A stretch of 64,000 bases of DNA, from contig CAWFAH010000007.1 of assembly GCA_963813705.1 (NCBI GenBank), positions 262,314-326,313 on the forward strand, read 5' to 3'. The notes beneath the pieces were generated by a model. The model was given only the letters and a program-made list of their open reading frames with translations. It had not been told where the DNA came from and made no database searches. Position numbers and translations under genes: made by a program. Positions 23,281 through 23,489 of this stretch are shown here, piece after piece (within the stretch, counting starts at the first letter, position 1; each line of letters starts with the position of its first letter). The stretch comes from an uncultured Chloroflexia bacterium (lineage in GTDB: Bacteria; Chloroflexota; Limnocylindria; Limnocylindrales; CSP1-4).

Positions 23281-23489
23281 TGCCCGAAGGGGCCGTCAGG
23301 ACCCGGGGCACTGGAGATCACATCAACGGTGTCTCGCCCTACCGGTCGCTTCGGGCGCTTCGCGTCCCGAAGCAGGCGATCTCACCATCGCGTGCGTCGG
23401 GCGTCCGGGGGGATGTGACCGGCATCCCGGTGTCGGTACTCCCCTCGGGCGAGCGAAGGACAGCCCGGCTCGTTCGTGCCGGGCTTTTT
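23281..23489 (+). ncRNA. Candidate structured small RNA (about 210 nt), family not recognised
   Basis: Bounded by the promoter above and the intrinsic terminator below. Helices: GUGCCC/GGGCAC (23280-85/23306-11), GCUUCGGG/CCCGAAGC (23348-55/23366-73), GGGAUG/CAUCCC (23410-15/23423-28), and long-range CUCGCCC/GGGCGAG (23333-39/23447-53). The overlapping ORFs are Arg/Gly/Pro junk. Confidence 0.45.

Follow-up and report, generated by a model that had tools for sequence, protein, structure and literature searches.

Several described RNA classes resemble, in part, the RNA found upstream of punA in this genome. The purine/2′-dG riboswitches (RF00167) and the xanthine NMT1 class are likewise 5′ elements located before a purine metabolism gene, in which a junction that covaries, and whose unpaired or loop positions hold unvarying nucleotides, is followed by a helix pairing the Shine–Dalgarno (SD) sequence or by a terminator. 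Compared to these purine-salvage riboswitches, the punA RNA is two to three times larger, has no Rfam match, contains a generic extra domain that also occurs before unrelated genes, showed no switching alternative in the predicted folds, and persists without punA in three genomes. The 6S RNA (RF00013), which in E. coli lies upstream of ygfA in the ssrS-ygfA arrangement, shares a length of about 200 nt, an own promoter, a co-oriented enzyme gene and, in part of the family, continuity with the message of that gene. In contrast to 6S RNA, the punA RNA is not rod-shaped, its ends do not pair with each other, and it has neither a central bubble nor a model match. The raiA motif RNA (RF03072) is also a multi-helix orphan of about 200 nt, found mostly with one downstream gene and sometimes with its own terminator; it gave no cmscan match here and differs in phylum, associated gene and architecture. 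LhrC and Qrr are sibling small RNAs with repeated loop motifs. The first domain of the punA RNA (domain I) is similar to these in being multi-copy, partly in tandem, with the same conserved loop and an own regulated promoter per copy; unlike in LhrC and Qrr, no complementary targets were found for this loop, and the punA copy additionally contains another large domain and serves as a leader in roughly half of the relatives. Among the Chloroflexota, the Limnocylindria are uncultured and occur abundantly in soil and freshwater; for them, literature searches returned no described regulatory RNA, and full-text searches also returned no description of a motif like the one reported here.

The window (the whole 64-kb stretch of DNA that was analysed) contains an 840-nt gap between moaA and punA. 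This gap holds tandem repeats, a cluster of DnaA-box-like sites, a predicted promoter, the RNA, a terminator, a tandem duplication and a −10-like hexamer of punA, arranged as follows:

21559–22815, upstream flank of the gap: moaA (Pfam and NCBIfam)
22924–23139, 5′ of the RNA: three 72-nt tandem repeats
23166–23240, no strand assigned: DnaA-box-like cluster directly upstream of the −35 element, the last box ending 5 nt before it
23166–73, 23178–85, 23200–06 and 23233–40: the DnaA-box-like sites TTGTCCAC, cGTCCACA, GTGGACA and GTGGACAA, respectively
23246–23274, plus strand: predicted sigma-70-type promoter TTGACC-17-TAACGT (TTGACC 23246–23251, TAACGT 23269–23274)
23281–23357, plus strand: domain I (minimum free energy (MFE) fold, consensus fold, covariation in helices 1–4)
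23281–23295 / 23343–23357, plus strand: long-range stem P1, enclosing P2
23304–13 / 23327–36, plus strand: stem of the P2 hairpin, with the 13-nt loop GAGAUCACAUCAA at 23314–23326
23358–23458, plus strand: domain II, a three-way junction (MFE fold, consensus fold, covariation)
23358–63 / 23453–58, plus strand: P3 (CUUCGC/GCGAAG), with few compensatory cases by eye (L019, L020, L122)
23366–23401, plus strand: variable hairpin P4
23402–13 / 23440–51, plus strand: P5, a long arm together with P6
23415–23439, plus strand: P6 with the invariant GGCAUCCCGGUGUC
23462–23490, plus strand: predicted intrinsic terminator, an 8-bp stem (7 G-C pairs) with an 8-nt loop, then U5
23514–23633, no strand assigned: 60-nt tandem duplication (two copies, 97% identical) between terminator and punA
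23643–23657, plus strand: TAGACT-N6-ATG, with a hexamer resembling a −10 element, spaced from the punA start codon as in leaderless mRNAs
23655–24509, plus strand: punA, purine nucleoside phosphorylase of the inosine/guanosine type (Pfam PF01048, E = 5e-49)

The punA product scored 330.9 bits against NCBIfam NF006054 (cut-off 218). The spacer from the terminator to the TAGACT-N6-ATG start of punA, where the hexamer would provide promoter activity, measured 165 nt and is lengthened by the 60-nt duplication; in the closest relative (L002) it is different and shorter. Both this duplication and the 72-nt repeats appear to be lineage-specific padding of the moaA-punA gap.

The RNA of about 210 nt, for which the sequence-only reading had claimed a strong fold, is real and conserved. 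A very stable structure of approximately 180 nt was found between the promoter and the terminator hairpin: the plus strand folded at −136 kcal/mol vs. −100.7 ± 4.7 kcal/mol for dinucleotide shuffles (z = −7.5), and the fold of the minus strand was weaker (z = −3.8 only). Homologues were aligned with R1, a covariance model built here from 19 sequences, the window's among them. Among 99 distinct homologues, 92.7% of the alignment cells formed standard pairs, compared to 36–45% when the partners were slid, and 41 of the 55 pairs changed on both sides; none of 500 shuffles attained the observed values, which carry some bias toward the structure since the alignment was fitted to R1. The structure obtained with RNAalifold on a MAFFT alignment agreed with the R1-based one.

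The pattern of substitution also bears on whether the stretch might instead encode a protein. A frame of 121 codons is open at 23280–23645, with a GTG at the inferred transcript start, and an NTG occupies the same position in many relatives. However, the frame gave no Pfam match, its homologues differ by whole hairpins and indels, the substitutions are compensatory across stems, and CTC replaces the start codon in several relatives, so a coding function seems hardly credible.

Covariation supported two separately closed domains. In domain I of the window, P1 (GCCCGAAGGGGCC / GGUCGCUUCGGGC) surrounds a hairpin with the conserved loop, as elsewhere in the family; its strands read GCCCGAAG-G-GGCC, pairing with GGUC-G-CUUCGGGC, and compensatory changes in this stem occurred in the related family f4 (G-C to U-A) and in L027. 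The relatives contain one to five domain I hairpins, with the 13-nt loop G[AC]GAU[CU][AG]C[AC]UCAA. In domain II, 16 of the 21 pairs of helix 8 changed on both sides, e.g., from C-G to U-A in 37 sequences. The stem and loop of P6 were invariant even at paired positions, which makes P6 binding-site-like, as such invariance is typical of binding sites. The corresponding hairpin, GAYYGGCAUCCCGGUGUCRRUAC, lies at 23417–23439 and occurs in a single copy in the genome. An aptamer-like fold of the kind known from riboswitches, which is conserved, covaries and has unpaired nucleotides that do not change, was present.

The sequence-only reading had also noted that GAGATC (23314–23319) and GATCTC (23378–23383) could form a pseudoknot or point to alternative folds. 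Both motifs were present at these positions, bringing together the domain I loop and the P4 loop, and their complementarity is conserved in part of the family, with no covariation behind it. Only this genus has the 6-bp match; a shorter pairing of 5 bp, with the P4 loop RUCUCACC, was found in 49 of 135 distinct sequences, the remainder having UUCG- or GNRA-type loops. Because the domain I loop is invariant, covariation testing is impossible for this contact, and the sole change seen (GCGAUC in L013) was uncompensated. The pairing could be an exchangeable peripheral contact. A second candidate pseudoknot, in which the loop of domain I (GAUCRC) would pair with the internal loop of P5/P6 (GYGAYC), was rejected, as its R/Y positions did not covary and A frequently faced C.

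Within the genus, BLAST detected the element in 17 of 18 genomes, and within the wider family in most genera; its own genome contains it once. The 23-nt signature GAYYGGCATCCCGGTGTCRRTAC matched at least 120 species-representative genomes. The contigs sharing this signature are filed mostly under Chloroflexota / Candidatus Limnocylindria (class Limnocylindria), which contradicts the actinobacterial setting suggested by the sequence-only reading. Positions 23275–23460 scored 190.9 bits against R1, although this sequence is one of the 19 from which the model was built; members found independently by pattern scan scored 42–198 bits across the full model length. Among the sampled genomes, R1 recovered the full RNA in 29 of 44 from family f1, in none of six from family f2 and in none of 49 from family f3. 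Weak matches covering domain I only were obtained in eight of 50 genomes of family f4 (one of them, G173, unpublished and used for no other result), and the only matches among 150 other sampled Chloroflexota genomes were in two that belong to f1. In four loci (L047, L048, L073 and L103), the RNA and a Limnocylindria-like punA occur in metagenome-assembled genomes (MAGs) filed under Deferrimicrobiaceae, Sulfomarinibacteraceae, Polarisedimenticolia and Binatia; these placements in other phyla are probably binning errors.

The sequence-only reading had matched the RNA to no known family, and cmscan likewise yielded no 6S, raiA, SRP, tmRNA, RNase P or riboswitch match. With Rfam 15 (4227 models), the window gave no match at the gathering score, and a scan of 22400–23900 at E ≤ 10 returned only chance-level microRNA or sRNA matches; the models for the raiA motif (RF03072), SRP, tmRNA, RNase P, Moco and purine riboswitches had no match at the RNA, and a region with domain I paralogues gave no match either. 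SRP RNA and tmRNA were found elsewhere in the genome. The RNA belongs to an undescribed two-domain family of RNAs from one family of Limnocylindria (soil Chloroflexota).

These scans are also relevant to the idea of a divergent 6S-like RNA that binds RNA polymerase. The length of about 200 nt, the strong own promoter and the position upstream of a co-oriented enzyme gene are all as expected for 6S RNA, and neither this genome nor 30 relatives gave a match to the Rfam 6S model, so that the 6S RNA of the lineage is unplaced in 31 genomes of the family. However, the model also missed nine of 14 control genomes, and its silence therefore says little. Moreover, the RNA forms two separately closed domains instead of the 6S rod, whose ends pair and whose centre is an open bubble, its hairpin number varies from one to five, and no 6S signal appeared in cmscan even at E ≤ 10, which makes this identity very unlikely. 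The bacterial type A model of RNase P likewise found nothing in this 83%-complete genome, and the 6S and RNase P RNAs of Limnocylindria may both be divergent.

The promoter TTGACC-17-TAACGT had been proposed from the sequence alone and was located exactly as described; a strict E. coli-type promoter scan did not list it. Counting only distinct homologous upstream regions in which the search pattern found a promoter, 72 had TTGACC as the −35 element, 80 had a spacer of 18 nt and another 17 one of 17 nt, and most −10 elements read TACCGT, TAACGT or TATCGT. Transcription of the RNA would start near 23281. The DnaA-box-like cluster at 23166–23240 was the sole place in the 3.17-Mb assembly with at least three T[GA]TCCAC 7-mers per 120 bp, and, of 111 distinct upstream regions of homologues, 105 had the same boxes at constant spacing, vs. 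one of 111 coding controls. Boxes of the GTGGA[CT]AA type were noted upstream of all domain I copies (at punA, at the other loci and in family f4). A replication origin at the cluster was considered and rejected, as the cumulative GC skew showed no turning point near the locus, although this is a weak test.

At its 3′ end, the RNA runs into a hairpin with the stem AGCCCGGC/GCCGGGCT (23462–23485), followed by TTTTT at 23486–23490. A scan of the 64-kb window for other hairpins with at least six G-C pairs and a contiguous U run found none, in line with the earlier claim that this is the only clear intrinsic terminator of the window. The terminator occurs in the clade formed by L001–L008 and L010, where its stem changes compensatorily from GCCCGG/CCGGGC to GCCGCGG/CCGCGGC and the loop UCGUUCG is kept. 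No conserved alternative partner of its 5′ arm was seen by eye in the window's clade, and for this reason the terminator looks constitutive. With an own promoter and an own terminator, the window would thus encode a discrete transcript, as judged by sequence alone.

In 141 of 147 loci, the RNA is followed by a co-oriented punA, usually 80–120 nt past the 3′ block. The largest class of endings (SD-type, 60 of 130 distinct loci) is spread over many genera and has no terminator; within a few nucleotides of domain II, a helix formed by GCGGGCCUC ... GGAGGCCCGC pairs the SD sequence of punA just before its start codon. The sequence of this helix is conserved, and owing to this small variation few compensatory changes were seen in it; the platform hairpin contains two CUGGA motifs. 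A leaderless-type ending without SD, with TANNNT 5–8 nt ahead of the start codon, was found in 37 loci, and eight more, the window included, combine it with a U run (terminator), giving 45 leaderless-type loci out of 130. Two loci had mixed endings, and 23 fell outside all classes by the crude patterns used. In the window, continuity of an SD helix with punA is absent, and the terminator, the 165-nt spacer and TAGACT-N6-ATG are in its place. Starts with TANNNT and no SD occur, e.g., in the window, L013, L026, L097 and L100, whereas 60 of the 130 loci contain GGAGG. Given TANNNT starts in 45 of 130 lineages vs. GGAGG in 60, the gene seems to have changed between a leadered and a leaderless mode of expression inside a single bacterial family.

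The sequence-only reading had taken the RNA for an independent small RNA and not for a punA leader. For this genome, an independent transcription unit is supported by the own promoter, the covarying terminator and the separate punA start. For the family as a whole, the denial of a leader does not hold, since in 60 of 130 loci the RNA is continuous with the SD-pairing helix of punA, an outcome of the kind that this reading had itself named as contradicting it. We tentatively favour, at slightly less than an even chance, an ancestral regulatory leader of punA with a putative sensor, which in this lineage has been uncoupled into a discrete terminated transcript. The RNA would be made from the conserved sigma-70-type promoter, guarded by DnaA-box-like sites, and would be ended here by the intrinsic terminator; the ancestral role of the two-domain family would be that of a regulatory 5′ leader of punA. 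We infer that domain II could be the punA-specific part and the likely sensor of a small molecule or protein, plausibly reporting purine nucleoside status. In SD-type relatives the output would be translational, because the terminal helix of the leader pairs the punA SD sequence. In this genus, punA would have turned leaderless with its own −10 element, and in this clade the constitutive-looking terminator would have cut off the leader, so that a discrete RNA would be made; this RNA might keep upstream transcription from the punA promoter and/or act via a binding partner.

A role as punA leader is supported by the SD-burying helix being continuous with the RNA, which a passenger RNA would not explain, and a role in cis also by domain II, which is single-copy here and in almost every relative immediately precedes punA. 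Against it, the RNA is fully conserved in the 45 of 130 loci, the present one included, with a leaderless-type punA, where in the absence of an SD a leader acting on translation would lack a target. Furthermore, the two-domain RNA persists in three genomes without an adjacent punA, and the tie is to one gene only, in one bacterial family. The repeated hairpin loops, moreover, resemble protein sites more closely than a pocket for a small molecule. A search for switching structures gave none: when 20 SD-type leaders were folded, domains I and II and the SD hairpin coexisted in the predictions, with an SD pairing probability of approximately 0.8 in most (range 0.6–1.0), and the thermodynamic predictions contained no mutually exclusive anti-sequestor or anti-terminator pairing. 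A platform exclusive with the aptamer, as in riboswitches, was thus found neither in these 20 predicted leaders nor, by eye, in the terminator clade. Within the family, the predicted output takes three forms: the SD is sequestered, the RNA is terminated, or punA has a leaderless-type promoter next to it.

The same observations can be read as an autonomous small RNA that acts alone, for example by protein sequestration or loop pairing, with the proximity to punA reflecting inherited synteny and shared transcription, comparable to 6S RNA and ygfA in E. coli; at SD-type loci, punA would merely use the promoter of the RNA. This is a real possibility that we rated close to the leader reading, albeit as the less probable of the two. 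It would account for the own promoter and covarying terminator in this clade, and for the retention of the RNA where punA is leaderless and in three genomes after punA left the locus. In these (L071, L094, L128), the order is moaA, two-domain RNA, a convergent cupin-like gene and thyX, and the only homologue of punA (48–52% identical) is encoded at another site that lacks the RNA. In its synteny with the RNA, moaA equals punA: the whole block moaA-RNA-punA-thyX is conserved (moaA in 62 of 66, thyX in 62 of 72), and adjacency to punA alone is therefore weak evidence. Relatives of domain I, in addition, are stand-alone, in tandem, or terminated at about 100 nt (L165). Metatranscriptome contigs from four soil studies also cover the RNA region of relatives (85–98% alike) and likewise punA, at a depth of 2–4; this support is weak, as the material could be RNA or carried-over DNA, and with such low depth and one contig extending upstream of the −35 element into the promoter, these contigs prove neither expression nor transcript ends. 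An autonomous RNA is, however, difficult to reconcile with the largest platform class, which is terminator-free and continuous with an SD-pairing helix and the punA start, and no extended complement of the loop was found elsewhere in the genome; the RNA has no known partner.

A protein-binding autoregulatory leader, in which the repeated hairpin loops and/or domain II bind PunA or a lineage-specific RNA-binding regulator that sets punA expression, comparable to ribosomal-protein or pnp leaders, would be consistent with the one to five tandem hairpins sharing an identical 13-nt loop consensus, with the association with a single gene, with the failure to find an alternative RNA fold, and with the conserved platform hairpin and its two CUGGA motifs. 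We nevertheless regard it as unlikely: the same domain I loops precede membrane-protein and GtrA-like genes and also occur in stand-alone copies, so they cannot be PunA-specific, and no candidate protein was identified.

Domain I recurs at four further loci in the genome, in contrast to domain II, which was found solely upstream of punA. These four copies lie in two places:

contig 10, 201.4–202.8 kb (L158:6438–7760), minus strand: tandem array of three domain-I-type RNAs, between hflX and a gene for a GtrA-family membrane protein
contig 11, 304831–304915 (L159:1332–1416), plus strand: domain I copy (loop GCGAUCGCAUCAA) located some 30 nt upstream of a membrane-protein gene

In the contig 10 array, two copies are identical, both with a pair of GGUGCUUGCAUC-loop hairpins; a separate −10 element and a GTGGATAA box accompany every copy, about 380 nt being duplicated, and similar arrays were found in at least seven genomes of the genus. 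The gene on contig 11 encodes an uncharacterised membrane protein of 310 aa with a leaderless-like start (TATCAT-N7-GTG), and this RNA-gene pair is orthologously kept, with TATCAT-N6/7-GTG starts, in at least seven other genera. R2, a covariance model of the shared domain I module, detected one to five copies per genome in 30 of 31 genomes of the family. In a search for trans targets, the only 11-nt complements of the loop in the genome were the antisense of the RNA copies themselves. Domain I would be a generic 5′ module of the lineage, composed of a long-range stem and hairpins that display the loop GAGAUCACAUCAA.

A further-reaching proposal is that domain I represents a class-wide family of promoter-proximal modules with DnaA-box-guarded promoters, often before leaderless genes, and that the copy at punA has gained a further domain that senses a ligand or a protein, constituting either a new purine-salvage riboswitch class or an RNA that couples DnaA/replication status to nucleotide salvage; we consider this doubtful. 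If domain II does bind a metabolite, a new riboswitch class in purine salvage would result, and if free RNAs are under DnaA-like control, replication status would be linked to nucleotide supply in a new way. In either case, R1, supplemented by R2 for the shared module, makes this orphan RNA accessible to testing, with natural variants numbering more than 100. Beyond the family of the window, domain-I-only RNAs with a compensatory P1 change were found in family f4 of the class, and one of them, L165 (G129:C10:34420–34585, minus strand), is directly followed on its 3′ side by a hairpin and U6 (an intrinsic terminator), indicating a free-standing RNA of about 100 nt.
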